From: an uncultured Arcobacteraceae bacterium
GTDB lineage: Bacteria > Campylobacterota > Campylobacteria > Campylobacterales > Arcobacteraceae
Direction of reading: 5' to 3'
NCBI GenBank assembly: GCA_964022095.1
Contig: CAXHZO010000005.1
Span: forward strand, 52,870-116,869
DNA: 64,000 nucleotides
The notes under the pieces were generated by a model. It worked only from the letters and a program-made list of their open reading frames with translations. It was not told the origin of the DNA and did no database searches. Shown here piece by piece: positions 21,393-38,323 of this stretch. Position numbers and translations under genes: made by a program. Position 1 is the first letter of the stretch; the number at the start of each line of letters is the position of its first letter.

Positions 21393-21425
21393 ATCTTAGT
21401 AGAATTTAATCGTATTATTATCGCA
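21393..21425 (-). promoter_or_regulatory. TGCGAT tandem box plus -10 element, promoter of SDR-leuB
   Basis: Minus strand reads TGCGAT-AATAA-TACGAT-N10-TAAGAT. Confidence 0.7.
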
Positions 21426-21431
21426 GTTTAT

Positions 21432-22190
21432 TTAAAACAGTTCTATTTTATATCCTGAGTTATTTTGATTTACTATTAAGTCTTTATGTATTTTACTTCT
21501 AAGTCTAAATAAAACAGACCTAAAAGCAGCATATCCAGCTGGTTCATCTTGCCAAATTGCATACTCCATTTGTTCTTGGGATACAAATTGCCCAGCACTT
21601 CTACAAAGTAAATCAATAATCTTTTTCTCTTTAGAAGTTAGTTTTATAGGTTCATCTCCATAATATAAAACTTCTACTTCTTTATCATAAAGATAACCAT
21701 ATTTAAGTTGTATTGTTCTATGATTTTGTTCTTTATTTAAAGATAATTGATGCTCTAAAGTTTTGTTTATATTTTCAACAGCATCTAGTTTTTTAATTTT
21801 TTCATTATCTTCTTTTGCTTTACTAAGAGCCACTTCAATAGCAGCATGTAAGCTTTGTTTTTTATATGGTTTGATTATATATCCATATGCTAAAGTTTGA
21901 GAAGCTTCTTTTATAGTTTTTATTTCTGAATTTGCAGTTAGAAAAACCACAGGTACCTCAGGAATTGAGTTTTTTAACTCTTTTGCAAGCTCAATTCCAG
22001 TAGTTGGTCCTTTTAGGTAAATATCCATCAAAATTAAGTCAGGTTTAGCACCTTTTTCTAATAAAGCTATAGTTTTACATCTATTTGGAGCAACACCACA
22101 AACTTTATATCCTAATTCATGTAGTGTTTCTTTTAGATTTAGTGCAATTATTGATTCATCTTCAACAATTAAAATTTCAATTTTGCTCAT
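21432..22190 (-). CDS. response regulator, REC plus OmpR/PhoB-type winged helix
   Basis: IVEDE...PDLILMDI...IKPY receiver; C-terminal LTSKEKKII...IW...LFRLRSKI...GYK wHTH pattern. Confidence 0.85.
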   Translation of the reverse strand: MSKIEILIVEDESIIALNLKETLHELGYKVCGVAPNRCKTIALLEKGAKPDLILMDIYLKGPTTGIELAKELKNSIPEVPVVFLTANSEIKTIKEASQTLAYGYIIKPYKKQSLHAAIEVALSKAKEDNEKIKKLDAVENINKTLEHQLSLNKEQNHRTIQLKYGYLYDKEVEVLYYGDEPIKLTSKEKKIIDLLCRSAGQFVSQEQMEYAIWQDEPAGYAAFRSVLFRLRSKIHKDLIVNQNNSGYKIELF

Positions 22191-22192
22191 TA

Positions 22193-23488
22193 TTATTCTC
22201 CCTCATCCTTAGAAAAAATTATATTACACTCTAAACCATTATTATTCTTAAACTCTATAGTTCCATCTAGTTGATCTTCAATAATTGAGTGAATAAGTTG
22301 CATTCCAATTGAATCACTTTTATATAGCGAGTCAATGTCATCTAATCCATCTCCATTATCACGAATTTTTACGTGGATCTGTTCATCTACTTTTTTCATA
22401 TGAATACATAATAAATTATCTCTATCTTCTTTAAATGCATATTTTAAAGCATTTACACAAAGTTCATGTAGAACCATTCCTATTTGTATACATCTATTTG
22501 TAGAAAAACTCAAATTATCAATGTGTACATCTACATTTAATGTTGTGTTTTGTGAAATATATAACTCTTTTATATCATCAACAAGTCTTTTTATATAATT
22601 TTTAAGATTTATATATGCTAGGTTTTCACCTAAATATAAAAACTCATGAACTAAAGCCATAGTATGAATTCTACTTCTACTTTGTTGTAAGATATAAATC
22701 ATATCTTTATCTTTTGTTCGTCGCTCTTGCATATTTAGTAGTGATGATATTATTTCCATATTGTTTTTTACTCTATGATGAATCTCTTTTAGTAATATGT
22801 CTTTTTCTTCAACTGACTTTTGTAATTCTTGATTCATTTTAGTGATTTTTGTTCTGTATTCTTGTCTTTGTGTCATATCTCTTGAAAAAGCACAAATATA
22901 TTCATTTCCATTATGTGTAAAACCATGACCTGAAACTTCCACAGGAAAAATTGTTCCATCCTTTCTAATTTGTGTAGTTTCTAATCTCCAATTTTTATGA
23001 TGGTAGATATTGTACATACACTCTTTTGCAGTCTCCCTATCAAAATTTGGGTCCATATCTTCTAAATACATATGATTTAAAAACTCATCTTTACTTCTTC
23101 CTATCATCTTACAAGCAGCTTCATTTACATAAATGAATTTTGCATCTAATGTAAACCAGTATATAGCATCAATAGAGTTGTTCAATGCAAACTCATAAGG
23201 AACAAGCCTTTCTTTATCTTTATCTTTTAACTCTTTGTATGAACCCTCAATTCTTGAAACAACTTTTTGCATATGATTTAACATGATAAATAAAATTATT
23301 CCAGTTACTATTAAAAATATAATTCCAAAAGTGAAAGGCCCTTCTTGGCTTAGTGAATGATACTTTGAAAACTCACTTACAAGTCTATCAATAAACAAAA
23401 TACCAACAGCTCCTATTAGTATATATGTTAATGAAAACTTTGTTGGTATGGATTTATTATTTAAAATATAGTTCTTAACTCTTCCCAT
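22193..23488 (-). CDS. membrane PAS-domain sensor histidine kinase, HisKA_2 type
   Basis: Two TM helices, PAS/PAC (RKDGTIFPVEV), EIHHRVKNN H-box, ELCVNALKYAF N-box, DNGDG; probable ATG at 23488. Confidence 0.88.
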   Translation of the reverse strand: MGRVKNYILNNKSIPTKFSLTYILIGAVGILFIDRLVSEFSKYHSLSQEGPFTFGIIFLIVTGIILFIMLNHMQKVVSRIEGSYKELKDKDKERLVPYEFALNNSIDAIYWFTLDAKFIYVNEAACKMIGRSKDEFLNHMYLEDMDPNFDRETAKECMYNIYHHKNWRLETTQIRKDGTIFPVEVSGHGFTHNGNEYICAFSRDMTQRQEYRTKITKMNQELQKSVEEKDILLKEIHHRVKNNMEIISSLLNMQERRTKDKDMIYILQQSRSRIHTMALVHEFLYLGENLAYINLKNYIKRLVDDIKELYISQNTTLNVDVHIDNLSFSTNRCIQIGMVLHELCVNALKYAFKEDRDNLLCIHMKKVDEQIHVKIRDNGDGLDDIDSLYKSDSIGMQLIHSIIEDQLDGTIEFKNNNGLECNIIFSKDEGE

Positions 23489-23549
23489 TTTACTGCTCTT
23501 ATTATAGATTTGAAAAATTATATCATAAATAAAAATATTCACTAATAAC

Positions 23550-23582
23550 TGCGATAATTTTGCGATTTTTTTCCATTAAGAT
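23550..23582 (+). promoter_or_regulatory. TGCGAT tandem box plus -10 element, promoter of dmpK-P
   Basis: TGCGAT-AATTT-TGCGAT-N10-TAAGAT. Confidence 0.78.
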
Positions 23583-23624
23583 TCAAATTGAATTAAAAAT
23601 TCATAATTGAAAAAGGTAGGTGTT

Positions 23625-23873
23625 ATGGCTAATGAATCACCGTTTGAAAGAAAATATGTACATATTACTGATGTTAAATCAAACGATTTAGTTGAGTTTG
23701 ATTTCTCTATAGGTGATCCATGTATGTATGTTGAACTTGCATTGCCGAAAAAGCAATTTGATGAGTTTTGTAAAAGAAATGCAGTTAAGCATTTAACAAG
23801 AGATCAAGAAATTGATGTGGAAAACGACAAGCATAAGTGGCAGTATGGTGTTGTTGGAACACTAAGTAAATAA
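23625..23873 (+). CDS. dmpK: phenol hydroxylase assembly subunit P0
   Basis: VEFDFSIGDPCMYVELALP...FDEFC; ATG at 23625 after AAGGTAGG. Confidence 0.9.
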   Translation: MANESPFERKYVHITDVKSNDLVEFDFSIGDPCMYVELALPKKQFDEFCKRNAVKHLTRDQEIDVENDKHKWQYGVVGTLSK

Positions 23874-23886
23874 AGGAGTTGAAAAT

Positions 23887-24882
23887 ATGTCTTTAGATAT
23901 AAAAAGTATAGATATTAAGCCAAAAAGAGAAACTTTTGGACACGTGGAAAGAAGAATTGGTGAAGGTAAGATGGCTTCAAGATATGAAGAGGCAACATTT
24001 GATATTCAGCCAGTTGCAAACTTTCATTATAGACCTTATGCAAATCCAGAGTTTGAGTTATATGATCAAAATAAAACTAGCATTAAAATGGAAGACTGGT
24101 ATAAGTTTTTAGACCCAAGACAATACCACTATGCTTCATATGTAACAGCAAGAGCAAAACAACAAGAAGTTGCAGAACAAAACTTTGTTTTTGTAGAAAA
24201 AAGAAATATGTTAGATGTAATGCCAGGAGATATAAAACAAGAAATCTTGAATTATGTTTTACCACTTAGACACTATGAGTGGGGAGCAAATATGAATAAC
24301 CTTCAATTATGTTCAGAAGGATATGGTGCAGCTATTACAAATGCTTATATGTTCCATGCAGAAGATAGATTAGGTAATGCTCAATATCTTACAAGAATTG
24401 GATTATTACTTAGTGAAAATGAACCTGCTGTTTTAGATAATGCAAAAGATAAATGGTTAAATGATGAAGCATGGCAGCCACTTAGAAAAGCAATGGAAGA
24501 TAGCTTTGTTTTACAAGATTGGTTTGAGCTTCATATAGCGCAAAATGTGATTTTCGATGGTTTTATTCATCCTTTAGTATTTGATAAGTACGAGCAAGAA
24601 CTAAACCAAAGAGGTGGAACTGCTCAAACTATGATGACAGAGTTTATCACATCTTGGAATGATGAATCTGCTAGATGGATTGATATGACAGTTAAAGTAG
24701 CAGCTTTAGAACGTGATGAAAATAAAGAGTTATTAAATCAATGGTGTAAAAAGTATATTGATATTGCAAGTAATGCAGCCCTAGCAATTGCTAAAAATAT
24801 AGTTAATAATCCAGAAGAAACAGTTAATAACATACAAGAGCAATTAGTGGCAAGATTAAATAAAAATGGTTTAAACCTATAG
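23887..24882 (+). CDS. dmpL: phenol hydroxylase beta subunit P1
   Basis: ASRYEEATFDIQP-NFHYRP, DPRQYHY and EWGANMNN motifs. Confidence 0.93.
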   Translation: MSLDIKSIDIKPKRETFGHVERRIGEGKMASRYEEATFDIQPVANFHYRPYANPEFELYDQNKTSIKMEDWYKFLDPRQYHYASYVTARAKQQEVAEQNFVFVEKRNMLDVMPGDIKQEILNYVLPLRHYEWGANMNNLQLCSEGYGAAITNAYMFHAEDRLGNAQYLTRIGLLLSENEPAVLDNAKDKWLNDEAWQPLRKAMEDSFVLQDWFELHIAQNVIFDGFIHPLVFDKYEQELNQRGGTAQTMMTEFITSWNDESARWIDMTVKVAALERDENKELLNQWCKKYIDIASNAALAIAKNIVNNPEETVNNIQEQLVARLNKNGLNL

Positions 24883-24890
24883 GAGAAAGA

Positions 24891-25160
24891 ATGTCAAAGG
24901 TATTTTTAGCACTTCAAGCAGTAGATGAAACAAGAGCTATTATTGAAGCTATACAAGAAGATAATGAAAATGTTGAGGTTGAACCACAGCCTGCCATGGT
25001 AAAAATCTCAGCTGAGAAAAAAATGGTAATAAATGCTCAAACTGTATCTGACAAATTAGGTAGAGATTGGGATCCACAAGAGTTACAGTTAGTTTTAATT
25101 TCACTAGCTGGAAATGTTGATGAAGATTATGACCACTTTACAATTTATTGGGAAAATTAG
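24891..25160 (+). CDS. dmpM: phenol hydroxylase regulatory protein P2 (MmoB/DmpM)
   Basis: 89 aa with IIEAI...PAMVKI...LISLAGNVDE. Confidence 0.92.
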   Translation: MSKVFLALQAVDETRAIIEAIQEDNENVEVEPQPAMVKISAEKKMVINAQTVSDKLGRDWDPQELQLVLISLAGNVDEDYDHFTIYWEN

Positions 25161-25171
25161 GAGAAAATATT

Positions 25172-26692
25172 ATGACTATGAGTACACAAAAAAGAAAAAA
25201 ACGTCTAAATATGAAAGACAAATATAAGTATATGACAAGACTTGGTTGGGAAACTACATATCAAGATATGGATGATGTTTTCCCTGAAGATAAATTTGAG
25301 GGTATAAAAATTCATGATTGGGAAGCTTGGGAAGATCCATTTAGAATGACAATGGATGCTTATTGGAAATACCAAGGTGAAAAAGATAAGAAACTATATG
25401 CAATTATTGATGCTTTTGCTCAAAATAATGGACAAAAAAATATTTCAGATGCAAGATATGTATCCGCATTAAAACTGTTTTTAACAGGTGTTTCACCTTT
25501 AGAATATCAAGCACATAGAGGTTTTGCAAATATTGCAAGAGCTTTTAGAGGTGATGGTCCAAGAGTTGCATGTCAAATGCAAGCTATTGATGAGTTAAGA
25601 CATGTTCAAACACAAATTCATACTTTAAGCCATTATAACAAATACTTTAATGGTTTTTCAGAGTGGGCACATTGGCATGATAATGTATGGTACTTATCTG
25701 TTCCTAAATCATTCTTTGATGATGCAAGAGCAGCAGGTCCTTTTGAGTTTATTATTGCTATTGGATTCTCATTTGAGTATGTATTAACTAATCTATTATT
25801 TGTACCGTTTATGAGTGGTGCAGCTTATAATGGAGATATGGCAACAGTTACATTTGGATTCTCAGCTCAAAGTGATGAGGCAAGACATATGACTTTAGGT
25901 TTACAAGCTATCAAGTTCTTATTAGAGCAAGACCCTGCAAATGTTCCTATTGTTCAAAAGTGGATTGATAAGTGGACTTGGAGAGGTTATAAAGTTTTAG
26001 GACTAGTATCTGCAATGATGGATTATATGTTACCTGATTCACCACAGTCTTGGAAAGAAGCTTGGGAATTATATTTTGAGCAAAATACAGTTGCACTATT
26101 TAAAGATTTAGAAAGATATGGAATTACAGTTCCAGATTGTGCAGCAACAATAAAAGCTGAAAAAGAGCATATTTCTCATCAAGTTTGGATGACACTATAT
26201 ACTCATAATGCAGCAGCACCTTTCCATACGTGGATTCCAGATGAGAAAAAAATGGATTGGTTAAGCGAAAAGTATCCTGAAACTTTCGATAAATATTACA
26301 GACCAGTTTATGAACACTGGAATAAGTTAGAAAAAGAAGGTACGAGATACTACTCTGAAATGCTTCCTCAGTTATGTCAAACTTGTCAGTTACCAATGTT
26401 AGCAACAGAAGTTGAAAAAGGTGAACCAACTCAAATTGCACATAGACATACTATGTACAATAATGAGAGATTCCATTTCTGTTCAGATCATTGTCAAGAT
26501 ATTTTTGAAAATGAACCTGAAAAGTATATTCAATCTTGGTTACCAGTTCATCAAATCTTCCAAGGAAACTGTGGAGGTGCTACACTTCCAGAAGTACTTA
26601 AATGGTATAAGGTTGAATTTGGACAAGATAATCTTGATTATGTAGGTTCTCAGGATCAAAAAATGTGGAAAGAATGGAAGGGAGAAGCATAA
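25172..26692 (+). CDS. dmpN: phenol hydroxylase alpha (di-iron) subunit P3 with YHS domain
   Basis: Two DExRH motifs (IDELRH, SDEARH), WEDPFR, CQTCQ and FCSDHC; ATG at 25172 after AGGAG. Confidence 0.96.
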   Translation: MTMSTQKRKKRLNMKDKYKYMTRLGWETTYQDMDDVFPEDKFEGIKIHDWEAWEDPFRMTMDAYWKYQGEKDKKLYAIIDAFAQNNGQKNISDARYVSALKLFLTGVSPLEYQAHRGFANIARAFRGDGPRVACQMQAIDELRHVQTQIHTLSHYNKYFNGFSEWAHWHDNVWYLSVPKSFFDDARAAGPFEFIIAIGFSFEYVLTNLLFVPFMSGAAYNGDMATVTFGFSAQSDEARHMTLGLQAIKFLLEQDPANVPIVQKWIDKWTWRGYKVLGLVSAMMDYMLPDSPQSWKEAWELYFEQNTVALFKDLERYGITVPDCAATIKAEKEHISHQVWMTLYTHNAAAPFHTWIPDEKKMDWLSEKYPETFDKYYRPVYEHWNKLEKEGTRYYSEMLPQLCQTCQLPMLATEVEKGEPTQIAHRHTMYNNERFHFCSDHCQDIFENEPEKYIQSWLPVHQIFQGNCGGATLPEVLKWYKVEFGQDNLDYVGSQDQKMWKEWKGEA

Positions 26693-27054
26693 TGGCAATT
26701 GTAAGTAAAGGTGAATATCCAGTAATTATGATGGATAGTGTAGATAAGTTTCATGGTAACCAATTAGTATATGTAGGTTGGGATAAACATAAGTTAATCA
26801 ATTCAGCGATGGCTTTTCCTTTACCACCACAAATGCCTTTTAAGGCATTAGTGCATGAAGTAATGCCAGGTTGTTATAAAGATCATCCAGATTTTGAAAA
26901 AGTTGTATGGGATGATTCTGTTATTTGGAGATTAAACGGTGAAGAGTTTACTCCTGATTTTGAAAAATCTCTTGAAGATAATGGAATTGATCATAAGTCA
27001 TTAGTTAGATTTGAAACACCAAATCTAACAGGAATTAACGGAGTAGGAATGTGA
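26692..27054 (+). CDS. dmpO: phenol hydroxylase gamma subunit P4
   Basis: YVGWDKH...HPDF...GIDHKSLVRFETP; ATG overlaps the dmpN stop. Confidence 0.9.
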   Translation: MAIVSKGEYPVIMMDSVDKFHGNQLVYVGWDKHKLINSAMAFPLPPQMPFKALVHEVMPGCYKDHPDFEKVVWDDSVIWRLNGEEFTPDFEKSLEDNGIDHKSLVRFETPNLTGINGVGM

Positions 27055-28109
27055 GTTATCAAGTAGAAATAGAACCAACAGGAGATGTAGTAGAAGTTCA
27101 AGATGGTCAAACTATTCTTGATGCTGCATTAAGACAGGGGGTATATATTCCCCATGCGTGCTCTCATGGTTTATGTGGTACTTGTAAGGTAGAGATATTA
27201 GAAGGTGAAGTTGACTATGGTGCAGCTTCTCCTTTTGCCCTTATGGATATGGAAAAAGATGAGGGAAAATGTCTTGCTTGTACTGCTACACCAATGGAAG
27301 ATTGTGCTATAGAAGCTGATGTTGATGAAGATCCAGATGCTAAATCAATACCTGTAAAAGATTTTATGGGAACAGTTGTTGAGGTGAAGGATTTAACACC
27401 TAGAATAAAAGGTATTTTTATAGAATTAGATGAAGAGATTGAGTTTCAAGCAGGTCAATATGTACAATATCATGTACCAGGATTTGAAGAACCAAGAGCA
27501 TTTTCTTTATGTAACTCTTCAAATGATAAAAAAATTGTAGAGTTAAATATTTCTTTAGTTCCAGATGGAGAAGCAACTCCATGGATTCATAAAAATGTAA
27601 AAGTTGGTGCAAGAAGAAAAGTATCAGGACCTTATGGAAGATTTTTTGTAAGAGAATCTGCTCAAAAACCTATGATTTTCTTTGCAGGTGGTTCAGGTCT
27701 TTCAAGTCCAAAATCTATGATTTTAGAGCAGCTTGAAAATGGAAGTAAACAAGAAATAACACTTTTTCATGGTGCTAGAAATGAAGAAGAGTTATATTAT
27801 GCAGATTTATTTAGAGACTTAGAGCAAAAGCATGAGAACTTTACATATGTACCTGTTTTATCCGATGAAGATACTCCTTCTTGGGAAGGGAAAAAAGGTT
27901 TTGTAAATGATGCTGCAAAAGAAGTTTTTGAAAATGACTTCTCTGGAAAAAAAGCATATCTTTGTGGACCTCCACCTATGATAGATGCTTGTATTACAAC
28001 ATTAATGAGAGGAAGACTTTACGAAAAAGATATTTATACTGAAAAGTTCTTCTCAAAAGCTGACTTAAATGCTGAAAATCAGCGTTCCCCTTTATTTAAA
28101 TCAATTTAA
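27051..28109 (+). CDS. dmpP: phenol hydroxylase reductase P5 (2Fe-2S/FAD/NAD)
   Basis: CSHGLCGTC, RAFS, GPYG, AGGSG and YLCGPPPM motifs. Confidence 0.95.
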   Translation: MSYQVEIEPTGDVVEVQDGQTILDAALRQGVYIPHACSHGLCGTCKVEILEGEVDYGAASPFALMDMEKDEGKCLACTATPMEDCAIEADVDEDPDAKSIPVKDFMGTVVEVKDLTPRIKGIFIELDEEIEFQAGQYVQYHVPGFEEPRAFSLCNSSNDKKIVELNISLVPDGEATPWIHKNVKVGARRKVSGPYGRFFVRESAQKPMIFFAGGSGLSSPKSMILEQLENGSKQEITLFHGARNEEELYYADLFRDLEQKHENFTYVPVLSDEDTPSWEGKKGFVNDAAKEVFENDFSGKKAYLCGPPPMIDACITTLMRGRLYEKDIYTEKFFSKADLNAENQRSPLFKSI

Positions 28110-28207: not shown

Positions 28208-28528
28208 TTGAAATATGAAATCTTCGTAAAAGATAAAGACAAAACTAAAACTTGTCTTGAATCTAAACATCTTATGGATGGTTTATATGTATATGATAAT
28301 CTAGTTCCAAAGGGTTGTCATAATGGTGCCTGTGGACTTTGTAAGGTTAAAGTTCATAGAGGAGACTACAAAAAATGCAAAATGAATAGAAAACACATCT
28401 CATGTGAAGAAGAGAGTGCAGATATTCTTTTAGCTTGTAAGACATTTCCTAGAAGTGATATGGAAATAGAATTTATACGTAGAGACTTATCTAAAGAAAA
28501 ATCCCAAGTTTATGTACTTGGTAATTAA
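28208..28528 (+). CDS. dmpQ: XylT/DmpQ-type plant-like ferredoxin
   Basis: GCHNGACGLCKV...MNRKHIS...LAC; directly before the C23O gene. Confidence 0.88.
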   Translation: MKYEIFVKDKDKTKTCLESKHLMDGLYVYDNLVPKGCHNGACGLCKVKVHRGDYKKCKMNRKHISCEEESADILLACKTFPRSDMEIEFIRRDLSKEKSQVYVLGN

Positions 28529-28545
28529 ATAATTAGGAGAAAGTA

Positions 28546-29493
28546 ATGAGCAGTATTATGAGATTAGGTCATGTTGATATTAATGTATTAGATATTAATG
28601 AATCAAGAGACTATTATGAAAATATTATGGGTATGGAAGTTACAAGAGAAGACTCTGATGGAACACTTTATTTAAAGTGCTGGGATGAATGGGATAAATA
28701 CAGTCTTATTTTAAGACCTAGTGAAGAAGCAACATATAATAAGGTTGCGTATAAAGTAGAAAAAGATTCTGATATAGATGATTTTAAAGAAAAAATCGAA
28801 AAATATGGAATAAAAACAGAGATTTTAGAAGCTGGAACTATTCCTGAATGTGGAAGGGTATTAAAGTTTATATCTCCAAGTGAGCATGAATTTAATTTAT
28901 ATGCTGAAAAAACATTTGTAGGTAAAAAAGTAGGTCACACTAATCCTGCACCTTGGCCAATTGATGGAAAAGGTATCAAAGCTCACTGGATTGATCATAT
29001 TTTATTAATGACTCAAGGTCCTGAAAAATTAATGGAAGCTACTAAGTTCTTTGAAGAAGTATTTGATATGAAATTAGCAGAGCAAGTTTGTGTAGGACCT
29101 GAGGGCTCAGTTCAGGCTGCAACATGGTTAAGTGCTGGAAACACTCCTCATGATTTAGCTTTTGTTGCTGGAGCAGAAACTGGTATGCATCATTTTGCAT
29201 TTTTCTTAGATGGTTGGAATGATATTTTAAGATCAGCAGATGTTATGGCTATGAATAATGTTAAGTTAGATGTTACTCCTCAAAGACATGGTATTACAAG
29301 AGGTGAGACTATTTATTTCTTTGACCCATCAGGACATAGACTTGAGACATTTGCAGGTCTAGGTTATGCAGTTTGTAAAGATATGCCAACAGTTACTTGG
29401 ACAGAAGATGAACTATGGAGAGGTATTTTCTATCATACAGGTCAAGAAAATGGTGCATTTACAACTGCATATACATTATCAGCTTATAAATAA
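28546..29493 (+). CDS. dmpB: catechol 2,3-dioxygenase
   Basis: RLGHV, WDEWDKYS, HHFAF and RHGITRGETIYFFDPSGHRLE motifs. Confidence 0.96.
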   Translation: MSSIMRLGHVDINVLDINESRDYYENIMGMEVTREDSDGTLYLKCWDEWDKYSLILRPSEEATYNKVAYKVEKDSDIDDFKEKIEKYGIKTEILEAGTIPECGRVLKFISPSEHEFNLYAEKTFVGKKVGHTNPAPWPIDGKGIKAHWIDHILLMTQGPEKLMEATKFFEEVFDMKLAEQVCVGPEGSVQAATWLSAGNTPHDLAFVAGAETGMHHFAFFLDGWNDILRSADVMAMNNVKLDVTPQRHGITRGETIYFFDPSGHRLETFAGLGYAVCKDMPTVTWTEDELWRGIFYHTGQENGAFTTAYTLSAYK

Positions 29494-29944: not shown

Positions 29945-31394
29945 AGTACAACACTATATTAACGGACAATTTTTAGATTCATCTTGTGGGGAGTTTTTTG
30001 AGAATATCAACCCTATGAATGGTCAAGTATTATCTCAAGTAGCCCTAGGACGAGAAGATGAAGTGAATGCAGCAGTTGCAGCAGCTAAAGCAGCTCTTAC
30101 TGGTGAATGGGGTCAAATGAAATTAAATGACAGAATTGCAATGATGTATGAAATTGCTGAGGAAATTGATAGAAGATTTGATGATTTCTTAGAAGCTGAA
30201 TGTTTAGATACAGGTAAACCTTATTCTATTGCAAGACATATTGATATCCCAAGAGGTGCTGCAAATTTTAAAGTATTTGCAGACACTATGAAATCTGTTG
30301 CAGATGAAGCTTATAGAATGGATACACCTGATGGAAAAGTAGCTATGAATTATTCTATGAGAAAACCTAAGGGGGTTATTGGTGTAATTTCTCCATGGAA
30401 TTTACCATTACTTTTAATGACTTGGAAAGTTGGTCCTGCAATGGCTTGTGGAAATACAGTAGTTGTGAAACCATCACAAGTTACACCAACAACAACATCT
30501 TTACTTGGTGAAGTAATGTCAAAAGTTGGTGTTCCTTCTGGTGCATATAATGTAGTACAAGGAAAAGGTTCAATTACTGGAAATTTATTAACAGCTCATA
30601 AAGATGTAGATGCTTTAACTTTTACAGGTGAGACAAAAACAGGTGAGATGATTATGAAAGCTTGTTCTCATGGTGTTAGAGATGTATCCTTAGAGCTTGG
30701 TGGAAAAAACCCAGCTATTGTTTTTGCTGATTGTGATATGGATAAGGCAATTGCTGAGACTACAAGATCGTGTTTTGCTAACTCTGGTCAAGTTTGTTTA
30801 GGAACTGAAAGAGTTTATGTTCAAAGAGAAATTTTTGATGAATTTGTATCAAAACTAAAAGAGTCAGCTTTAAAACTAAAACTTGGAATTCATAATGATG
30901 AATCAGTTGATATGGGGCCAGTAGTTAGTGCTGCTCATAGAGATAAAGTATTAGAGTTTTATGACATAGCTAAAAAAGAGGGTGCAAATGTAATTTTAGG
31001 TGGAGGTGCTCCTAAAATGGAAGGTGATTTAGCAAATGGATTCTTTGTTGAACCTACTATTTGGACTGGTCTTCCTGAAGATGCAACAGTTGTAAAACAA
31101 GAAGTATTTGGACCTTGTTGTCATATTGCACCTTTTGATAGTGAAGAAGAAGTTATTAAAATGGCTAATGATACAGATTATGGACTAGCATCTACAATAT
31201 TTACAGAAAATTTAGATAAGGCTCATAGAGTAGCTTCACAAATTGACTCAGGAATTGTATGGATTAATTCATGGTTCTTAAGAGATTTAAGAACACCATT
31301 TGGTGGAATGAAAGGTTCTGGTATCGGAAGAGAGGGTGGTCACCACTCATTAGAGTTCTATACTGAACTTAAAAACGTATGTATAAAAATGTAA
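29937..31394 (+). CDS. dmpC: 2-hydroxymuconic semialdehyde dehydrogenase
   Basis: PWNLPLLL, LELGGKN, NSGQVCL and WFLRDLRTPFGG motifs. Confidence 0.95.
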   Translation: MNKVQHYINGQFLDSSCGEFFENINPMNGQVLSQVALGREDEVNAAVAAAKAALTGEWGQMKLNDRIAMMYEIAEEIDRRFDDFLEAECLDTGKPYSIARHIDIPRGAANFKVFADTMKSVADEAYRMDTPDGKVAMNYSMRKPKGVIGVISPWNLPLLLMTWKVGPAMACGNTVVVKPSQVTPTTTSLLGEVMSKVGVPSGAYNVVQGKGSITGNLLTAHKDVDALTFTGETKTGEMIMKACSHGVRDVSLELGGKNPAIVFADCDMDKAIAETTRSCFANSGQVCLGTERVYVQREIFDEFVSKLKESALKLKLGIHNDESVDMGPVVSAAHRDKVLEFYDIAKKEGANVILGGGAPKMEGDLANGFFVEPTIWTGLPEDATVVKQEVFGPCCHIAPFDSEEEVIKMANDTDYGLASTIFTENLDKAHRVASQIDSGIVWINSWFLRDLRTPFGGMKGSGIGREGGHHSLEFYTELKNVCIKM

Positions 31395-31403
31395 GGGTGT
31401 AAT

Positions 31404-32198
31404 ATGTCAATGACTCAAGAAAAAATTGAAAAGTATGGAAATGAATTGTATGAGGCTTTAAAAGGAAACTATACAATTGAGCCTATTTCAAATAGAGAAC
31501 CTGATTCTACAATTGAAGATGCTTATGCTATTCAACATCACTTTTTAAAAAGAAGAATGGAAGATGATGGAAGTAAAATTATTGGTAAAAAAATTGGTGT
31601 TACATCAAAGGTTGTTATGGACATGTTAGGTGTTCATCAACCTGATTTTGGTTACCTTTTATCAGATATGATTTACTCTGATGGTGATGTAATAAATGTA
31701 ACAAGTGGAATGATTCAGCCAAAAGCAGAGGGTGAAATAGCCTTTGTTTTAAAAGAAGATTTATGTGGACCAGGAGTTACAGCTGCTGATGTTATTAAAG
31801 CAACAAAATTTGTAATGCCTTGTTTTGAAATAGTTGATTCAAGAATCAAAGATTGGAAAATTAAAATCCAAGATACAGTTGCTGATAACGCTTCATGTGG
31901 ATATATGGTATTTGGAGGACAAAGTGTATCTCCTTTAGATGTTGATTTAACAACTTGTGGAATAACTTTAGAGAGAAATGGTGAGTTATTACATACAGGA
32001 GCAGGTGCAGCAGCTCTTGGTAGTCCTGTAAATGCAGTAGTTTGGCTTGCAAATAAACTTGGAGAGTTTGGTGTATCGCTAAAAGCAGGTGAGGTTATTT
32101 TATCAGGGGCTTTATGTGCAATGGTAGATATAAAACCAGGTGATAATATGACTGCAAGTATTGGTGGCGTTGGTTCTGCCTCAATCAGATTTGAATAA
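31404..32198 (+). CDS. dmpE: 2-oxopent-4-enoate hydratase
   Basis: GKKIGVTSK...QPDFG and WKIKIQDTVADNAS motifs. Confidence 0.92.
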   Translation: MSMTQEKIEKYGNELYEALKGNYTIEPISNREPDSTIEDAYAIQHHFLKRRMEDDGSKIIGKKIGVTSKVVMDMLGVHQPDFGYLLSDMIYSDGDVINVTSGMIQPKAEGEIAFVLKEDLCGPGVTAADVIKATKFVMPCFEIVDSRIKDWKIKIQDTVADNASCGYMVFGGQSVSPLDVDLTTCGITLERNGELLHTGAGAAALGSPVNAVVWLANKLGEFGVSLKAGEVILSGALCAMVDIKPGDNMTASIGGVGSASIRFE

Positions 32199-32210
32199 AA
32201 GGTAAATACA

Positions 32211-33095
32211 ATGGAAAAAATAAATTGTGCATTAATTGGGTCTGGAAATATTGGAACAGACCTAATGTATAAACTAAAAAGAAGTGAAATATTAAATCCT
32301 TTATGGATGGTTGGTATTGACCCTGAGTCTGATGGTTTATTAAGAGCTAAAGAAGATGGTATGAAAACAACAGCCGAAGGTGTTGATGGATTACTTCCTT
32401 TTATTAAAGAAGATGGTGTAAAGATTGCATTTGATGCAACATCAGCTTATGTTCATGGTGAAAATAATAAAAAGTTAGCGGAACTTGGAGTTCAAGTTAT
32501 TGATTTAACTCCTGCTGCAATAGGACCATTTTGTGTGCCATCAGTTAATATGGAAGAGCTACTTGCTCAAAATACTCAAAATGTAAATATGGTTACTTGT
32601 GGTGGGCAAGCTACTATTCCTATGATTGCCGCTGTATCAAAAGTTCAGGAAGTTGAATATGCAGAAATTGTAGCAACAGCAGCTTCTAAGTCAGCAGGTC
32701 CAGGAACTCGTGCTAATATTGATGAGTTTACTGAAACTACAAAACTTGGAATAGAGCAAGTAGGTGGTGCTAAAAAAGGTAAAGCAATTATTATTTTAAA
32801 TCCTGCAGAACCACCTTTAATGATGAGAGATACAATTCATTGTTTAACAAGTGAAAAACCTGATGAAGAAGCTATTACTAAATCAATCCATGAAATGGTT
32901 GAAACTATGCAAGAGTTTATTCCAGGGTATGTGTTAAAAAATGGACCAGTTTTTGATGGTAATAAAATCTCTATTTGGTTAGAAATTGAAGGTTTGGGGG
33001 ATTATTTGCCTAAGTATGCAGGTAACCTAGACATTATTACAGCAGCAGCAACAAATATTGCAGAACAAATGGCTAAAAAGATTAAAGGAGCATAA
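32211..33095 (+). CDS. dmpF: acylating acetaldehyde dehydrogenase
   Basis: [22 protein letters not shown] and YAGNLDI motifs. Confidence 0.95.
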
Positions 33096-33096
33096 G

Positions 33097-34125
33097 ATGG
33101 ATTTACAAGGTAAAAAAATAAAAATTCATGATATGTCTTTAAGAGATGGAATGCACTCAATTAGACATCAATTTTCACTTGAAGAGATGACAAATATGTC
33201 AACAGCAATGGATAAAGCAGGTGTTCCTTTTATTGAAGTTACTCATGGAGATGGACTTGGTGGTTCATCACTTAACTATGGATGGGGAAGACATACTGAT
33301 GAAGAGTGGTTAGATGCAGTAGTGCCAAATATGACACAAGCTAAAATCTCAGCTCTTTTACTTCCAGGAATCGGTATTGTAAAAGATTTAGAAAAAGCTG
33401 TTGATCATGGTATTTCTATGGTTAGAGTAGCAACTCATTGTACGGAAGCTGATTGTTCAGCCCAACATATAAAAGCTGCTAAATCAATGGGACTTGATAC
33501 AGTTGGATTTTTAATGATGGCTCATATGGTTGATGAAAAAAGATTAGTTGAGGAAGCTTCTAAAATGGTTTCTTATGGAGCTACTACTATTTATGCAACT
33601 GATTCAGCTGGCTACTTACTTCCTGATATGGTAAGTTCTAGAATTAAAGCATTAAAAGCAGAGTTTGGTGATGAAATTGAACTTGGTTTCCATGGGCACA
33701 ATAATTTATCAATGGGTGTTGCAAACTCTTTAGCTGCTATTGAAGCAGGTGCTACACGAATTGATGCTTCACTTGCAGGTTTTGGAGCAGGTTCTGGAAA
33801 CACTGCAACTGAAGTATTAGTTGCTGTTTGTAATAGAATGGGTGTTGATACAGGTGTTAATCTTGAAGCTATTGAAGATGCAGCTGAGGATATTGCACTT
33901 CCTATTATGGGTAAACCTACAAGAATCTCAAGGGATTCTATTACTTTAGGTTATGCAGGTGTTTATTCATCATTTTTACTATTTGCTAGACGAGCAGAAG
34001 AAAAGTATGGAATAGATGCAAGATCTTTACTTGTTGAATTAGGTAGAAGAGGAATGATTGGTGGTCAAGAGGATATGATTGATGATTGTGCTATGGAATT
34101 AGCTAAACAAAAAGGATTATTATAA
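33097..34125 (+). CDS. dmpG: 4-hydroxy-2-oxovalerate aldolase
   Basis: [21 protein letters not shown] and [13 protein letters not shown] at 33097 after AAGGAG. Confidence 0.95.
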
Positions 34126-34913
34126 TGGCATTAGATAAAGCAACAATAGAAAAACTTGCAAAGCATTGTGAAGATGCAGAATTGCAAGCTTATGAGATTA
34201 CAAAAATTACTGATGATTACCCAGAAATGACATATGAAGATGCATATGATATTCAATGGACTGCAAGGGCTGCTAAGGAAGCAAGAGGTCATAAAATAGT
34301 TGGTATGAAAATGGGGCTTACTTCACAGGCTAAAATGAAACAAATGGGAGTTCCAAATCCTTGTTATGGATATCTTGCTGATTACTTTGCATATGGTGAT
34401 GGGGCAGAAATACCATATGACGAATTAATTCATCCAAAAGTTGAAGCTGAAATTGCTTTTGTATTAAAAGATGATTTAAGTGGTCCGGGATGTCATATAG
34501 GTGATGTATTAGCTGCTACTGATTTTGTAATGCCTGCTGTTGAGATTATTGATTCAAGATATAAGGATTTTAAATTTGATTTAAAATCTGTAATTGCTGA
34601 TAACTCTTCATCTTCTAGATATGTAAGTGGTGGTATGGCAAAAAAAGCTAATGAAGTTGATTTAAAAACTTTAGGTGTCGTAATGGAAATAAATGGTGAA
34701 GTTGTACAACTTGGAGCAGGAGCTGCAGTTCTTGGTCATCCAGCAACTGCTATTGCAATGCTTGCAAATATGATGAGTGAACGAGGTGAGGTTTTAAAGG
34801 CTGGATCTTATATCTTAAGTGGAGCAATTACAGCTGCAACTACTGTTAATAAAGGTGATAATGTAACTGTTAAGTTTCAAGATTTAGGAACTTTATCATT
34901 TAAATTTGTATAG
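34125..34913 (+). CDS. dmpH: 4-oxalocrotonate decarboxylase
   Basis: KMGLTSQAKMKQMGV and FDLKSVIADNSSS motifs. Confidence 0.92.
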   Translation: MALDKATIEKLAKHCEDAELQAYEITKITDDYPEMTYEDAYDIQWTARAAKEARGHKIVGMKMGLTSQAKMKQMGVPNPCYGYLADYFAYGDGAEIPYDELIHPKVEAEIAFVLKDDLSGPGCHIGDVLAATDFVMPAVEIIDSRYKDFKFDLKSVIADNSSSSRYVSGGMAKKANEVDLKTLGVVMEINGEVVQLGAGAAVLGHPATAIAMLANMMSERGEVLKAGSYILSGAITAATTVNKGDNVTVKFQDLGTLSFKFV

Positions 34914-34918
34914 AAAAT

Positions 34919-35068
34919 AAGAGCAACTTATTGCTTTTAAAAAATGGGATATTTTAAGGACAACTTGTTGTCCCTTTAGGGTTTGCTTCTTTAAAGATGG
35001 CTTTGCCATCTTGTTAAAAGAAGTTAAATATGTAAGGTCCCTTAAAAAATGGGACATTTTTTAAGGAG
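34919..35068. repeat. cluster of short palindromes between dmpH and dmpI; the last stem overlaps the dmpI SD
   Basis: GGACAAC-tt-GTTGTCC; AAGATGGC-ttt-GCCATCTT; CCTTAAAAAATG-gga-CATTTTTTAAGG; TTAAAAAATGGGA occurs twice. Confidence 0.7.
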
Positions 35069-35074
35069 TATATT

Positions 35075-35266
35075 ATGCCAATAGCAACTATAAATATAAT
35101 CGAAGGCAGATCTGATGAGCAAAAAGAGAAGCTTATAGAAAAAGTAACTCAAGCAATTCACGAAGCTATAGATGCACCAAAACAAAATGTTAGAGTGATT
35201 TTAAATGAAATGCCAAAACAACATTTTGGAATAGGTGGAGAAAGTGTAAAAAAGATGGGGCGATAA
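35075..35266 (+). CDS. dmpI: 4-oxalocrotonate tautomerase
   Basis: N-terminal Pro (MPIA), EGRSDEQK and FGIGG; 63 aa. Confidence 0.95.
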   Translation: MPIATINIIEGRSDEQKEKLIEKVTQAIHEAIDAPKQNVRVILNEMPKQHFGIGGESVKKMGR

Positions 35267-35267
35267 A

Positions 35268-36275
35268 GTGTTAAAATTAAGTGTATTAGACCAATCTCCA
35301 ATTCATGATGGAAAAGAAGCAAAGCAAGGCTTATTTGATACTATTGAATTAGCAAAATCTTGTGAAGACTTAGGTTATTATAGATATTTATTAGCAGAAC
35401 ATCATGATACACCTGGCTATGCTTCTTGTGCCCCTGAGATTATGGTTAGTGCAGTTGCTTCAAATGCTTCAAAAATTAGAGTTGGTAGTGGTGGAGTTAT
35501 GCTAAATCACTATAGCTCTTTTAAAGTAGCAGAGACTTTTAATACACTTAATGCTTTATACGATAATAGGATTGATTTAGGTGTAGGAAGAGCTAGTGGC
35601 GGAAGTTTTTTAGCTACTAGAGCTTTGCATTCAAATCAAAGTGATTATTCAAAAAAAGTTTATGAAACAATAAATTATTTAGATAAAACAGTTCCTTTAA
35701 ATTCTTCATTTAGTGGATTGACTTTATCCCCAGTTCAAGAAAATAGTACTCCTGTGTATTTACTAGGTTCTAGTAATTCAAGTTCTTCTTTAGCAGGAGT
35801 TTTAGGTGCAGGTTTTATCTTAGCACTATTTATAGGAACACATGAAAGAAATTCTTCAATAATACAAGAGTATAAAAAAACATTTAATAAAAGTCATAAT
35901 TTTAAAAAGCCAAAAGCTAGTATTGCAGTTGCTTGTATTGTTGCAAAGGATAAAGAAGAAGCAAGATATATAGCAAGTACACATACTTATTGGAAGTTAC
36001 AAGCTTTCAGACAGCCTACAAGGGATGATTTACAAAGCCCACAAGCAGTTCAAGAACTAATAAAAGATTTAAGCCTTGAAGATAGACAATATTATGAAGA
36101 AACAATGAATACCATGATATTGGGTAATGCAAAAGAGTGTAAAGAAGAAATAGAGAAATTAGCTTTAGAATATGAAGTTGATGAGGTAATTATTGTGAAT
36201 GTGACTTATTCTTTTGAGCATAGAAAAAGATCATATGAACTTTTAGCAAAAGAGTTTGATTTAAATAAGGAGTAA
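35268..36275 (+). CDS. luciferase-like (LLM) flavin-dependent oxidoreductase
   Basis: LSVLDQSP, AEHH, RVGSGGVML and RIDLGVGRA motifs. Confidence 0.88.
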   Translation: MLKLSVLDQSPIHDGKEAKQGLFDTIELAKSCEDLGYYRYLLAEHHDTPGYASCAPEIMVSAVASNASKIRVGSGGVMLNHYSSFKVAETFNTLNALYDNRIDLGVGRASGGSFLATRALHSNQSDYSKKVYETINYLDKTVPLNSSFSGLTLSPVQENSTPVYLLGSSNSSSSLAGVLGAGFILALFIGTHERNSSIIQEYKKTFNKSHNFKKPKASIAVACIVAKDKEEARYIASTHTYWKLQAFRQPTRDDLQSPQAVQELIKDLSLEDRQYYEETMNTMILGNAKECKEEIEKLALEYEVDEVIIVNVTYSFEHRKRSYELLAKEFDLNKE

Positions 36276-36277
36276 AA

Positions 36278-37096
36278 ATGTCAAATCCAGAAATAGCAAA
36301 TAGTATTAATACGGGTAATTATAATACTAACTATCATGATTTAGGTGAGGGTGAAGTAGTTTTATTTATCCATGGTTCAGGACCAGGGGTTTCAGCCTTT
36401 GCAAACTGGAGATTAACAATGCCCCAGCTTGCAAAAAACTTTAGAGTAATAGCTCCTGATATGGTAGGCTTTGGTTATAGTGATAGACCTAATGATATTA
36501 CTTATAGTATGGATGTATGGGTAGAGCAAGCTATTAATTTAATGGATGCTTTAAAAATAGAAGAATTTAATATCGTTGGTAACTCTTTTGGTGGAGGCTT
36601 GGCTTTATGTTTAGCTATAAAATATCCAAATAGAGTGAATAAAATGGTATTAATGGGTGCAATGGGTGTTGATTTTGAAATAACAGCTGGACTTGATCAA
36701 GCATGGGGATATACTCCAAGTATAGAAAACATGAAAGCTTTATTAGATACATTTGCATATAGTAGAGAACTAGTAACAGATGATTTAGCAAAAATGAGAT
36801 ATGAAGCTAGTATTAGACCTGGATTTCAAGAATCATTTAGTTCAATGTTTCCCGAACCAAGACAAAATAGTGTAAAATCAATGGCAAGTGATGAAAAAGA
36901 AATAGCTTCTATTGATAAAGATGTTTTAATTATCCATGGTAGAGATGATAAGGTGATTCCTTTTGAAAACTCAATTAGATTGCATAATCTAATAGAAAAG
37001 TCACAATTACATGGTTTTGGACAATGTGGACATTGGTCTCAAATAGAACATAAGGATAGATTTAATAAACTACTTGAAGATTTCTTTTTAGAATAG
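36278..37096 (+). CDS. dmpD: 2-hydroxymuconic semialdehyde (meta-cleavage product) hydrolase
   Basis: HGSGPGVSAFANW, GNSFGG nucleophile elbow, HGRDD, CGHWSQIE. Confidence 0.9.
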   Translation: MSNPEIANSINTGNYNTNYHDLGEGEVVLFIHGSGPGVSAFANWRLTMPQLAKNFRVIAPDMVGFGYSDRPNDITYSMDVWVEQAINLMDALKIEEFNIVGNSFGGGLALCLAIKYPNRVNKMVLMGAMGVDFEITAGLDQAWGYTPSIENMKALLDTFAYSRELVTDDLAKMRYEASIRPGFQESFSSMFPEPRQNSVKSMASDEKEIASIDKDVLIIHGRDDKVIPFENSIRLHNLIEKSQLHGFGQCGHWSQIEHKDRFNKLLEDFFLE

Positions 37097-37104
37097 GAGT
37101 AGAT

Positions 37105-38043
37105 ATGAACTTTTTAATTTTAGGTACAGGTGGAATAGGCGCATTTTACGGAGCAAGATTATTAAGTTCATCAAATAAAGTTACATTTGTCGCAAGGAGT
37201 TTGCACTTAGAAGCTATAAGAAAAAATGGCTTACAAGTGCAACATCCTGATTTTTCCTTCTCTCAAAAAGTAGATGTATCACAACTACAAGATATAGACT
37301 TCACTTCTTTAAATATTGATGTAATAATTCTAACTACAAAATCAAATACAACTAAAATAATAGCAAAAGAGCTTTCTTTTAAACTAGATACATTAAAAGA
37401 CAAACCATATATTTTATCTTTACAAAATGGTGTTGAGAATGAGAAATTTTTATGTGAATATTTTCAAAAAGATAAAATAATAGGTGGACTAACTAGAAAA
37501 ATAGGTGCTCATATTATAAAACCCTCTTTTATAGAAGCCACAGGTAAAGTAGAAACTCTAATAGGTGCAATTTCCCAAACTAAAGAAAACACAGCTTTTT
37601 TAAAGAAGTTAAATAAAAGTATAAATGAAGCTGGTATTTTATGTGAAGTTGTTGATGATATAAATAAAGAGCTTTGGAAAAAACTTATTATAAACAATGG
37701 AGTAAATGCTATTTGTGCTTTACTCAAAATTAAAACTGGTGTTTTAATGAATAATGAAAAACTTTCATCTTTAGTTTATAGTCTAATGAAAGAGACTCAA
37801 AGTGCTGCAAAAGCTTGTAGTATAGAAATTACTAACAATGAACTAAGTCAAATGTATGAGTTAATTAAAAATTTTGACTCAATTAAACCCTCAATGCTAG
37901 TTGATAGAGAGTTTAAAAGAGAATTAGAAATAGATGAAATCTGTAATGTAGTAATAAACTATAATAAAATGCAAAATATAGATAGCCCTTATACTAAATC
38001 AATCTCTTATTTACTTGATTTTGTGTATAAAAATGAAAAATAA
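37105..38043 (+). CDS. panE: ketopantoate reductase (ApbA/PanE) family protein, copy 2
   Basis: GTGGIG, LQNG, LWKKLIIN and KPSM motifs. Confidence 0.75.
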   Translation: MNFLILGTGGIGAFYGARLLSSSNKVTFVARSLHLEAIRKNGLQVQHPDFSFSQKVDVSQLQDIDFTSLNIDVIILTTKSNTTKIIAKELSFKLDTLKDKPYILSLQNGVENEKFLCEYFQKDKIIGGLTRKIGAHIIKPSFIEATGKVETLIGAISQTKENTAFLKKLNKSINEAGILCEVVDDINKELWKKLIINNGVNAICALLKIKTGVLMNNEKLSSLVYSLMKETQSAAKACSIEITNNELSQMYELIKNFDSIKPSMLVDREFKRELEIDEICNVVINYNKMQNIDSPYTKSISYLLDFVYKNEK

Positions 38044-38050
38044 AACTATT

Positions 38051-38083
38051 TGCGATTAATCTGCGATAAGTTTTTATTATTAT
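38051..38083 (+). promoter_or_regulatory. TGCGAT tandem box plus -10 element before an ORF-less segment
   Basis: TGCGAT-TAATC-TGCGAT-N10-TATTAT. Confidence 0.7.
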
Positions 38084-38089
38084 TACCTT

Positions 38090-38278
38090 TGAAATAGGTG
38101 CAAGTGATATATTTATTTTTGAAGTTGTAGTACCTATTATGTTTTTTGCTTTTAAACTTATAAATGCTTTCTTTTTATCACTTACAACTTCAAAGCGACT
38201 TATATGAAGTTTCTCCTTTCATAAAAAAATGATTTAGACATAAATACGGCATTTTATATGCCGTATGCCCTTATTTTA
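38090..38278 (+). ncRNA. candidate structured sRNA or leader RNA with anti-SD loop
   Basis: Own promoter box; several complementary segments; TATGAA-gtttctcct-TTCATA hairpin; terminal ATACGGCAT-tttat-ATGCCGTAT hairpin. Confidence 0.5.
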
Positions 38279-38290
38279 ACTTATAAAAAG

Positions 38291-38323
38291 TGCGATAATT
38301 TTGCGATTTAATTTAATTAAAAT
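38291..38323 (+). promoter_or_regulatory. TGCGAT tandem box plus -10 element, promoter of the porin gene
   Basis: TGCGAT-AATTT-TGCGAT-N10-TAAAAT; the 17-mer is identical to the dmpK site. Confidence 0.78.

Follow-up and report, generated by a model that had tools for sequence, protein, structure and literature searches.

A direct-repeat box, probably read by the adjacent two-component regulator, marks promoters of phenol-degradation genes in Arcobacteraceae

The genome of an uncultured Arcobacteraceae bacterium (assembly GCA_964022095.1) contains, within a 64,000-nucleotide stretch of contig CAXHZO010000005.1 (positions 52,870 to 116,869; hereafter the window), a cluster of phenol-degradation genes in which a response regulator and a sensor kinase are encoded next to the phenol hydroxylase genes dmpKLMNOP. 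A preliminary description of this cluster had pointed to five promoters that share the architecture TGCGAT-N5-TGCGAT-N10-TAnnnT, and had proposed that the repeat, which we call the box, is the operator of the adjacent regulator and delimits a phenol regulon. Here we find that the box accompanies the regulator throughout the family and in the few distant genomes that encode a homologue. Judged from sequence, a structural model and analogy with PhoB, the box is quite probably the site at which the adjacent regulator activates, in a PhoB-like manner, promoters that have no -35 hexamer.

The box is confined to five promoters and fixed in geometry

All five sites lie where they had been placed (Table 1): each is intergenic, is oriented toward the unit downstream of it, keeps a half-site spacing of 11 bp and has a TAnnnT hexamer exactly 10 nucleotides (nt) downstream. 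As delimited by the box, the regulon in the host genome (2,565,272 bp, 28% GC, 31 contigs) consists of five units inside 17 kb, namely dmpKLMNOP, the meta-cleavage operon, a short-chain dehydrogenase (SDR) gene with a leuB-like gene, a unit that has no long open reading frame (ORF) and is referred to here as the ORF-less unit, and a porin gene.

TGCGAT-N5-TGCGAT is matched five times in the window at no more than two mismatches, against a mean of 1.34 in 100 shuffled sequences, one of which reached five. The whole genome has 35 matches at this level; all three exact matches and two of the three with a single mismatch are the five sites. The half-site TGCGAT itself occurs 373 times in the genome on both strands. 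We also carried out the genome-wide weight-matrix scan that the preliminary description had proposed, with the -10 hexamer included. The five sites scored 34.4-43.9 bits and the next-best position in the genome 12.8 bits (the matrix was built from related sites, and the five sites were themselves in the training set). They are the sole strong matches. A similar frequency of the motif in unrelated intergenic regions would have refuted the earlier proposal, but those of this genome lack it.

Spacing within the box and between box and -10 hexamer is narrowly constrained. Related loci totalling 510 kb contain GCGA-N7-GCGA 89 times, and every other spacing from N3 to N12 not at all or once. TAnnnT stands at exactly N10 in 67 of 76 unique sites (best other offset, 14). 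Among 66 unique box promoters, only three have an extended -10 (TGn), and the -35 position of 63 matches TTGACA at no more than three of six bases. With the -10 hexamer set at -12 to -7, the box spans about -39 to -23 and occupies the place of the -35 element. The layout is pho-box-like, with two direct repeats of 11-bp period, a fixed 10 bp to the -10 hexamer and no -35 hexamer.

Box and regulator occur together across the family

We examined 184 genomes of the family, with regulator orthologues defined by at least 67% identity, and scanned them for the pattern GCGAW-N6-RCGAW-N10-TANNNT. Orthologues are present in 38 genomes spread over nine genera. These 38 genomes hold 175 matches to the pattern (two to eight each), against 16, one each, in the 146 others; the same pattern reversed has 0-3 matches per genome. 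Every one of the 36 genomes with dmpN, which encodes the large subunit of phenol hydroxylase, carries the regulator. These genomes are kin, and the co-occurrence should be read as a strong association rather than as a statistical test. Some genomes with no detected regulator (G017, G107, G057 and G030) have a single box near-identical to that of a regulator-bearing relative, the G017 box being the same as the one upstream of a porin gene in G010. Such lone boxes could be remnants; alternatively, fragmentation of the assemblies may have hidden the regulator.

The box adjoins the kinase gene in 28 of 29 orthologous 3.7-kb loci. Where the loci were compared over 20 kb in 20 relatives, the kinase-regulator pair is divergent from dmpK-P, with a box ahead of dmpK, in all 20, and an equivalent box is found upstream of the SDR gene in 15. 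We further made two alignments blind to the motif, one of the kinase-dmpK spacer from 21 genomes and one of the region upstream of the ferredoxin gene, which heads the meta-cleavage operon, from 16 genomes with unrelated upstream genes. The invariant columns of both are the two GCGA cores plus the T, A and T of the -10 hexamer. In the spacer, the columns of TGCGA, GCGA and TA..T are invariant, and at the meta-operon promoter the box with its -10 hexamer is the sole conserved island. The spacer alignment also conserves the promoter of the kinase-regulator operon, TGnTAnAAT at 23525-23517 (-).

The association extends beyond the family

Our sample of the class comprised 401 genomes, 377 of them from other families. 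A regulator homologue was found in only three of these 377, from two families and at 44-49% identity, and in each of the three TGCGATTTTTWTGCGAT-N10-TAnnnT is retained next to the genes of the regulator and a PAS-HisKA_2 kinase; GC content is 54% at two of the three loci. The distant boxes point at a gene for a small cytochrome c, after which comes one for a FAD_binding_4 flavoprotein, a layout that we take to be p-cresol methylhydroxylase-like. In one of these genomes a further box faces an aldehyde dehydrogenase gene, behind which lie LigB-type protocatechuate 4,5-cleavage genes and a TRAP transporter. The earlier proposal that the box is the operator of the adjacent regulator thus gains support from the co-occurrence, from the islands that emerge from motif-blind alignments and from the persistence of the box beside regulators of 44-49% identity.

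The regulator joins a PdtaR-like receiver to a winged helix

The receiver of the regulator matches Pfam Response_reg at 83 bits; among 29 homologues, D56, K107 and P108 are invariant and E10, D11 and T85 nearly so. The output domain matches Trans_reg_C at 37.4 bits (Pfam cut-off, 26.2), and no ANTAR domain was detected by Pfam. In an AlphaFold2 model (predicted local distance difference test score, pLDDT, 86.7), the winged helix is made up of strands at 159-177, helices at 186-197, 205-213 and 220-233, and a hairpin wing at 239-249. The best full-length matches in Foldseek (about 250 columns) are MtrA, PrrA, KdpE, RpaA, PmrA, PhoP and DrrB/D, and the matched structures of KdpE, PmrA, PhoP and RpaA are DNA-bound forms.

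OmpR/PhoB regulators usually have a short flexible linker and receivers that dimerise through the alpha4-beta5-alpha5 face. The model instead has a helix of 45 residues (111-155), continuous with alpha5, that together with the receiver superposes on the receiver and coiled coil of EutV (2.4 A over 153 columns), so that the usual dimer arrangement would not apply. Sequence comparison with the PDB matched the receiver only, with 1s8n (PdtaR) and 6wsh among the best; PdtaR-like and PhyR-like proteins are closest, and one source labels a homologue of the regulator PdtaR. The kinase matches HisKA_2 (89 bits) and PAS_9 (47 bits) in Pfam and has two predicted membrane helices with a short loop between them; the PAS domain is cytoplasmic. 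The designation of the regulator as OmpR/PhoB-type thus holds for its winged helix, both by Trans_reg_C and by fold, but not for its receiver and linker, which are of the PdtaR/EutV kind, nor for its kinase, which is of the HisKA_2 type. Given this receiver, the 45-residue helix, the HisKA_2 kinase and the Trans_reg_C match, domain assignments and model indicate that the regulator is a PdtaR/EutV-like module in which a winged helix replaces ANTAR.

Proposed mechanism and alternative explanations

In the mechanism that we infer from sequence and analogy, as regards binding, start sites and inducer as well as the choice of activation over repression, a membrane-anchored PAS-HisKA_2 kinase would sense phenolic compounds and phosphorylate Asp56 of the regulator, which would dimerise via its long helix. 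Two winged helices would sit head to tail on the GCGA half-sites, 11 bp or one helical turn apart, and the regulator, seated at -39 to -23, would recruit or position sigma-70 polymerase at promoters with neither a -35 hexamer nor an extended -10. The kinase-regulator operon has an extended -10 promoter of its own, independent of the box. The pho box lies 10 bp from the -10 hexamer, and PhoB activates through sigma-70. PhoB binds two 11-bp direct repeats (PMC2648988, excerpt), and the fixed register of the box to the -10 hexamer leads us to favour PhoB-like activation here.

Several points weigh against this interpretation and call for caution. Owing to the kinship of the compared genomes, with orthologues in nine genera, the counts overstate independence, and a few of the 16 single matches in genomes without the regulator resemble true boxes. 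Two paralogous kinase-regulator pairs, described below, share the type of box and the recognition helix, and either paralogue could serve a given promoter. As the receiver and linker are unlike those of canonical OmpR/PhoB regulators, the dimer geometry on direct repeats is assumed. Moreover, the -35 element is poorly conserved in promoters of this phylum generally (PMC7755780, excerpt), so its lack is a weaker sign of activator dependence than in Escherichia coli, and a protein seated at -39 to -23 could repress as well. Under repression, the regulator or its unphosphorylated form would block polymerase at this position until phenolics release it. The box does overlap the region that polymerase has to contact, and promoters that reportedly work with a weak -35 (PMC7755780, excerpt) might be active unaided. 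However, occlusion needs no fixed register, yet the distance to the -10 hexamer is exact in the great majority of sites, and the box promoters are without the extended -10 that the promoter of the kinase-regulator operon has. Direct repeats at such a position activate in the case of PhoB. The same has been argued for Sulfurospirillum (PMC7755780, excerpt), and overall we consider repression improbable.

The regulator and the box are linked by inference, and a transcription factor encoded elsewhere might bind the box while the adjacent pair controls something else; the regulator-less genomes with one match each would suit such a factor. It would nevertheless have to account for the co-occurrence with the regulator and the adjacency to its kinase gene, for the box following homologues of 44-49% identity into other families, and for a tandem direct repeat that fits a winged-helix dimer, and the cluster at 19.5-39.6 kb encodes no second regulator; we think it very unlikely. 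A conserved element at a fixed distance from a -10-like hexamer might also belong, as their upstream element, to promoters of a class that an alternative sigma factor recognises. But the copies end 10 and 21 nt from the -10 hexamer, neither of them at the 16-18 nt of a -35 element, they are equal and one helical turn apart, the cluster has no sigma gene, and the element tracks the regulator across families, so that we give this explanation almost no credence.

Composition of the proposed regulon in this genome and its relatives

If the box is the site of the adjacent regulator, as we favour, the units downstream of it would constitute a regulon. The targets are phenolic throughout: phenol hydroxylase, the meta-cleavage pathway and the porin here, joined in relatives by toluene-monooxygenase-like and cresol-methylhydroxylase-like clusters, transporters and a chemoreceptor. 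Phenolic compounds are thus common to the box-linked units, which supports the phenol regulon first suggested and widens it.

Boxes precede porin genes whose products are 42-98% identical in 10 further loci, which were picked from box matches. Other box-preceded units in the family include a TauE-like permease, an ABC transporter, a prephenate-dehydratase-like gene and an Ldh-like gene that heads a meta operon. In one genome (G005; L048:9296(-)), a toluene-4-monooxygenase-like cluster has a box 45 nt ahead of it; the cluster comprises hydroxylase, TmoB, Rieske protein, MmoB-like protein and second hydroxylase subunit, followed by alcohol dehydrogenase and reductase, with a transposase gene nearby. 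At L039:18992(-) and L043:18946(-), a box is found 42-96 nt upstream of a gene for a 627-aa chemoreceptor, whose homologue in L037 has 4HB_MCP_1 and MCPsignal domains. This position of the box suggests that chemotaxis belongs to the phenolic response.

Many relatives (L037, L039, L043-L045, L050 and L058) have a second, paralogous kinase-regulator pair with a regulator 67-74% identical to the first. It is divergent from the Ldh-like gene that heads a meta-cleavage operon, and shares both the kind of box and the recognition helix with the first pair. This helix and the wing hardly vary across the orthologues and the second paralogue, which agrees with the boxes being indistinguishable: no difference was visible between boxes beside the two pairs when the 20-kb loci were compared by eye.

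The ORF-less unit and the porin leader

The ORF-less segment has no ORF of at least 23 aa. A terminator scan places a hairpin at 38244-38266, with a T-run after it to 38275. The predicted fold of the segment (-39.4 kcal/mol, z -3.7) is better than those of all 200 shuffles. The tandem layout of the boxes of the ORF-less unit and the porin is kept in five related genomes, together with a stem GAAGTTGT/ACAACTTC and a C/U-rich stretch ahead of the terminator. A consensus fold of the six sequences, two of which are identical, has one stem of eight pairs with a single compensatory change, which is too little to call a structure. A search of 21000-39000 against Rfam (E <= 1) gave no match, and a short-word search of the genome for targets of the RNA gave only chance-level matches in AT-rich DNA. 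We rejected an encoded peptide, as the ORF of 22 aa here (28 aa in one relative) is not kept in frame among close relatives when the alignment is read. In two other genomes a full, box-driven prephenate-dehydratase-like gene (345 aa) separates the two boxes and immediately precedes that of the porin; in one other, a box stands ahead of a similar short ORF-less stretch that runs toward the end of a porin gene. Our best guess from the sequence is a box-driven small RNA of about 190 nt, a tentative reading that we would sooner expect to fail than to hold; the alternative is the decayed leader of a gene.

The leader of the porin gene (38329-38398, about 70 nt) is highly conserved in six genomes: invariant columns form long runs, and there is an imperfect stem TAGAGTACCA/TGGTAGTCTA. 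It may be a regulatory leader.

Organisation and possible transfer of the gene cluster

The kinase-regulator pair, on the minus strand, is divergent from dmpKLMNOP, and the SDR and leuB-like genes follow downstream of the regulator (Table 1). Domain annotation reveals no other regulator gene and no sigma gene within the cluster at 19.5-39.6 kb. Although the kinase ORF extends up to GTG 23542, ATG 23488 is the more probable start of the gene. A second leuB on contig C7, 82% identical to the copy in the cluster, identifies the latter as a paralogue.

Table 1. Features of the phenol-degradation cluster, with positions in the window
Feature	Positions	Strand	Description
Box TGCGATAATAATACGAT	21425-21409	-	N10, then -10 TAAGAT at 21398-21393; promoter of the SDR/leuB-like unit; predicted start about 21385-21387
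Box TGCGATAATTTTGCGAT	23550-23566	+	N10, then -10 TAAGAT at 23577-23582; dmpKLMNOP promoter; predicted start about 23588-23590
Box TGCGATTTTTCTGCGAA	28130-28146	+	N10, then -10 TAAAGT at 28157-28162; promoter of the meta-cleavage operon; predicted start about 28168-28170
Box TGCGATTAATCTGCGAT	38051-38067	+	N10, then -10 TATTAT at 38078-38083; promoter of the ORF-less unit
Box TGCGATAATTTTGCGAT (second occurrence)	38291-38307	+	N10, then -10 TAAAAT at 38318-38323; porin promoter; predicted start about 38329-38331
Extended -10 TGATATAAT	23517..23525	-	Kinase-regulator operon; no box ahead in its own direction
SDR and leuB-like unit	19491..21364	-	Downstream of the SDR/leuB box (NCBIfam)
SDR	20570-21364	-	NCBIfam
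3-Isopropylmalate-dehydrogenase-like (leuB-like) paralogue	19491-20558	-	NCBIfam
Response regulator, 252 aa	21432..22190	-	Receiver, 45-residue helix and winged helix-turn-helix
Sensor kinase	22193..23488	-	Two predicted membrane helices, PAS, HisKA_2/HWE and ATPase domain
dmpK, L, M, N, O, P	23607..28109	+	Multicomponent phenol hydroxylase (Pfam)
Meta-cleavage operon	28208..38043	+	Headed by ferredoxin (NCBIfam/Pfam annotation)
ORF-less transcript candidate, about 190 nt	38089..38275	+	Stem GAAGUUGU/ACAACUUC, C/U-rich stretch UUUCUCCUUUCAU, terminator
Outer-membrane porin, OprD/Opr family	38399-39565	+	Pfam/NCBIfam
Porin terminator, strong	39595-39622	+	Terminator scan

The Pfam matches of dmpK-P are Phenol_hyd_sub, Phenol_Hydrox (twice), MmoB_DmpM and Phenol_monoox, plus a BenC/MmoC-like reductase. 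The first part of the meta-cleavage operon encodes ferredoxin, catechol 2,3-dioxygenase, an HbpS-like protein, 2-hydroxymuconic semialdehyde dehydrogenase and the products of dmpE, dmpF, dmpG and dmpH; the second part comprises an ORF of the size of 4-oxalocrotonate tautomerase (35075-35266, 63 aa), LLM oxidoreductase, a dmpD-like hydrolase and a panE-like reductase. Neither the mismatch scan nor the weight-matrix scan found a box in the gap at 34913-35075. Hairpins with T-rich tails are present at 35040-35066, between dmpH and the tautomerase-size ORF, and at 28068-28086, inside the 3' end of dmpP and just ahead of the meta-operon box; both are possible points of attenuation or termination between units.

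Contigs from four possible-RNA runs (relatives about 90% similar, with two of the runs probably DNA) cannot show the start, end or level of transcripts and were not used. Nor did we use as evidence a single study in which one contig ends at 23598 and word depth is far higher on dmpK-N than on the kinase-regulator genes.

After the porin, 39656-42923 encodes an EamA-family transporter, a 426-aa protein without a Pfam or NCBIfam match and a Mem_trans protein. The transporter and the 426-aa protein hold this position in four related genomes, and no box precedes either. At the other end of the cluster, an 87-aa ORF at 19207-19470 (+) matches only the C-terminal residues 203-281 of the 283 of prephenate dehydratase and is probably a remnant of that gene.

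The DNA of the cluster at 19174-38380 is 96.7-98.3% identical to a locus (L031, G055:C1:313191-333190) in a genome assigned to another genus, and the regulators of the two genomes are 100% identical. The only other genome of the host's own genus has no regulator, no dmpN and no box. Near-identity in another genus together with absence from the sole other genome of its own genus suggests that the island has recently moved by horizontal transfer.

Novelty and significance

We found no description of the regulator, the box or the regulon in the open-access literature searched, and homologues of the regulator are named only generically in sources on Poseidonibacter, Halarcobacter, Aliarcobacter and Arcobacter; one such source assigns a regulator of 81% identity to Poseidonibacter lekithochrous (genome of 3.57 Mb). 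A paper on Arcobacter sp. CAB shows that the meta-cleavage pathway works in this group and is silent on its regulation, the terms 'two-component', 'histidine kinase' and 'response regulator' being absent (excerpt). Promoters without a -35 at which a winged-helix response regulator has a direct-repeat site are known already; new are the architecture of the protein, the type of kinase, the pathway targeted and how broad the regulon is. The system may represent the founding example of an undescribed phenolic-sensing two-component family in Campylobacteria, with a PdtaS/PdtaR-like core bearing a winged helix and an invariant GCGA-N7-GCGA-N11-TAnnnT box that switches on whole aromatic-degradation islands; the chances of this broader reading seem to us just short of even.

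Should it hold, one box would govern the monooxygenases for phenol and toluene, cresol methylhydroxylase and ring cleavage, as well as a dedicated porin, transporters, a chemoreceptor and a small RNA induced by phenol. Control of phenol hydroxylase operons through sigma-54, by one-component sensors such as DmpR, is a textbook example; the same genes here appear to be under a sigma-70, two-component, PhoB-like circuit with an unusual regulator architecture, one that seems to move between genera together with its catabolic island. The specificity of the box would let the regulon be read straight from any genome of the group, and in relatives it marks porin, transporters and chemoreceptor as likely members of the phenolic response. 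Arcobacteraceae of marine and wastewater habitats are frequently encountered at polluted sites, and for them the result would be a compact and testable sensor-promoter pair, accompanied by a candidate small RNA under the same control as the phenol genes.

Comparison with known systems

Regulators of the DmpR/XylR/MopR type have the same targets (dmpKLMNOP and the meta pathway) and the same class of inducer. They are one-component, sigma-54-dependent enhancer-binding proteins (PMC7264223, excerpt), whereas the present regulator is two-component and a promoter of the -10 type lies ahead of dmpK. No sigma-54 promoter (-24 GG/-12 GC) was found upstream of dmpK, where the sequence from 23543 to the ribosome-binding site (about 23612) is devoid of GG; a profile search of the host genome for XylR_N (PF06505) gave no match, with control genomes equally silent. 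Two-component control of aromatic catabolism, with PAS-containing kinases, is found in the TodS-TodT and StyS-StyR systems of Pseudomonas. TodT and StyR are NarL/FixJ-family regulators whose binding sites lie upstream, at a distance from the promoter, and their kinases are large double-sensor proteins.

PdtaS-PdtaR of Mycobacterium and EutW-EutV of Enterococcus share with the present pair a receiver prolonged by a long helix. The kinase of PdtaS-PdtaR is, as here, of the HisKA_2 type with PAS. The output of PdtaR and EutV is the RNA-binding ANTAR domain, whereas here it is a DNA-binding winged helix, and control is accordingly expected at promoters and not at terminators.

Within the same bacterial class, the OmpR-type regulator PceP of Sulfurospirillum binds direct repeats that overlap the -35 of six promoters in one gene region, and has been argued to be an activator (PMC7755780, excerpt). 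Like the present regulator, it is encoded inside a catabolic or respiratory region in which several units share a direct-repeat element, and we also count as a likeness the low constitutive expression of the PceS-PceP operon (same excerpt). Its element, however, is CTATW-N17-CTATW, with one site about 85 bp upstream of the starts served, and its kinase has seven membrane helices and a periplasmic domain and responds to tetrachloroethene. PceS-PceP is backed by electrophoretic mobility shift assays and differential RNA sequencing, while the present system is known from its sequence (PMC7755780, excerpt, for all comparisons with PceS-PceP).

The closest parallel to the box itself is the pho box of PhoB-PhoR in E. 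coli, where a winged-helix regulator reads two direct repeats of 11-bp period (PMC2648988, excerpt) that replace the -35. The half-site is CTGTCAT in the pho box and GCGA(T/A) here. The present system further differs in its receiver of the PdtaR/EutV kind with a 45-residue helix, in its HisKA_2 PAS kinase and in its presumed signal, phenolics instead of phosphate.

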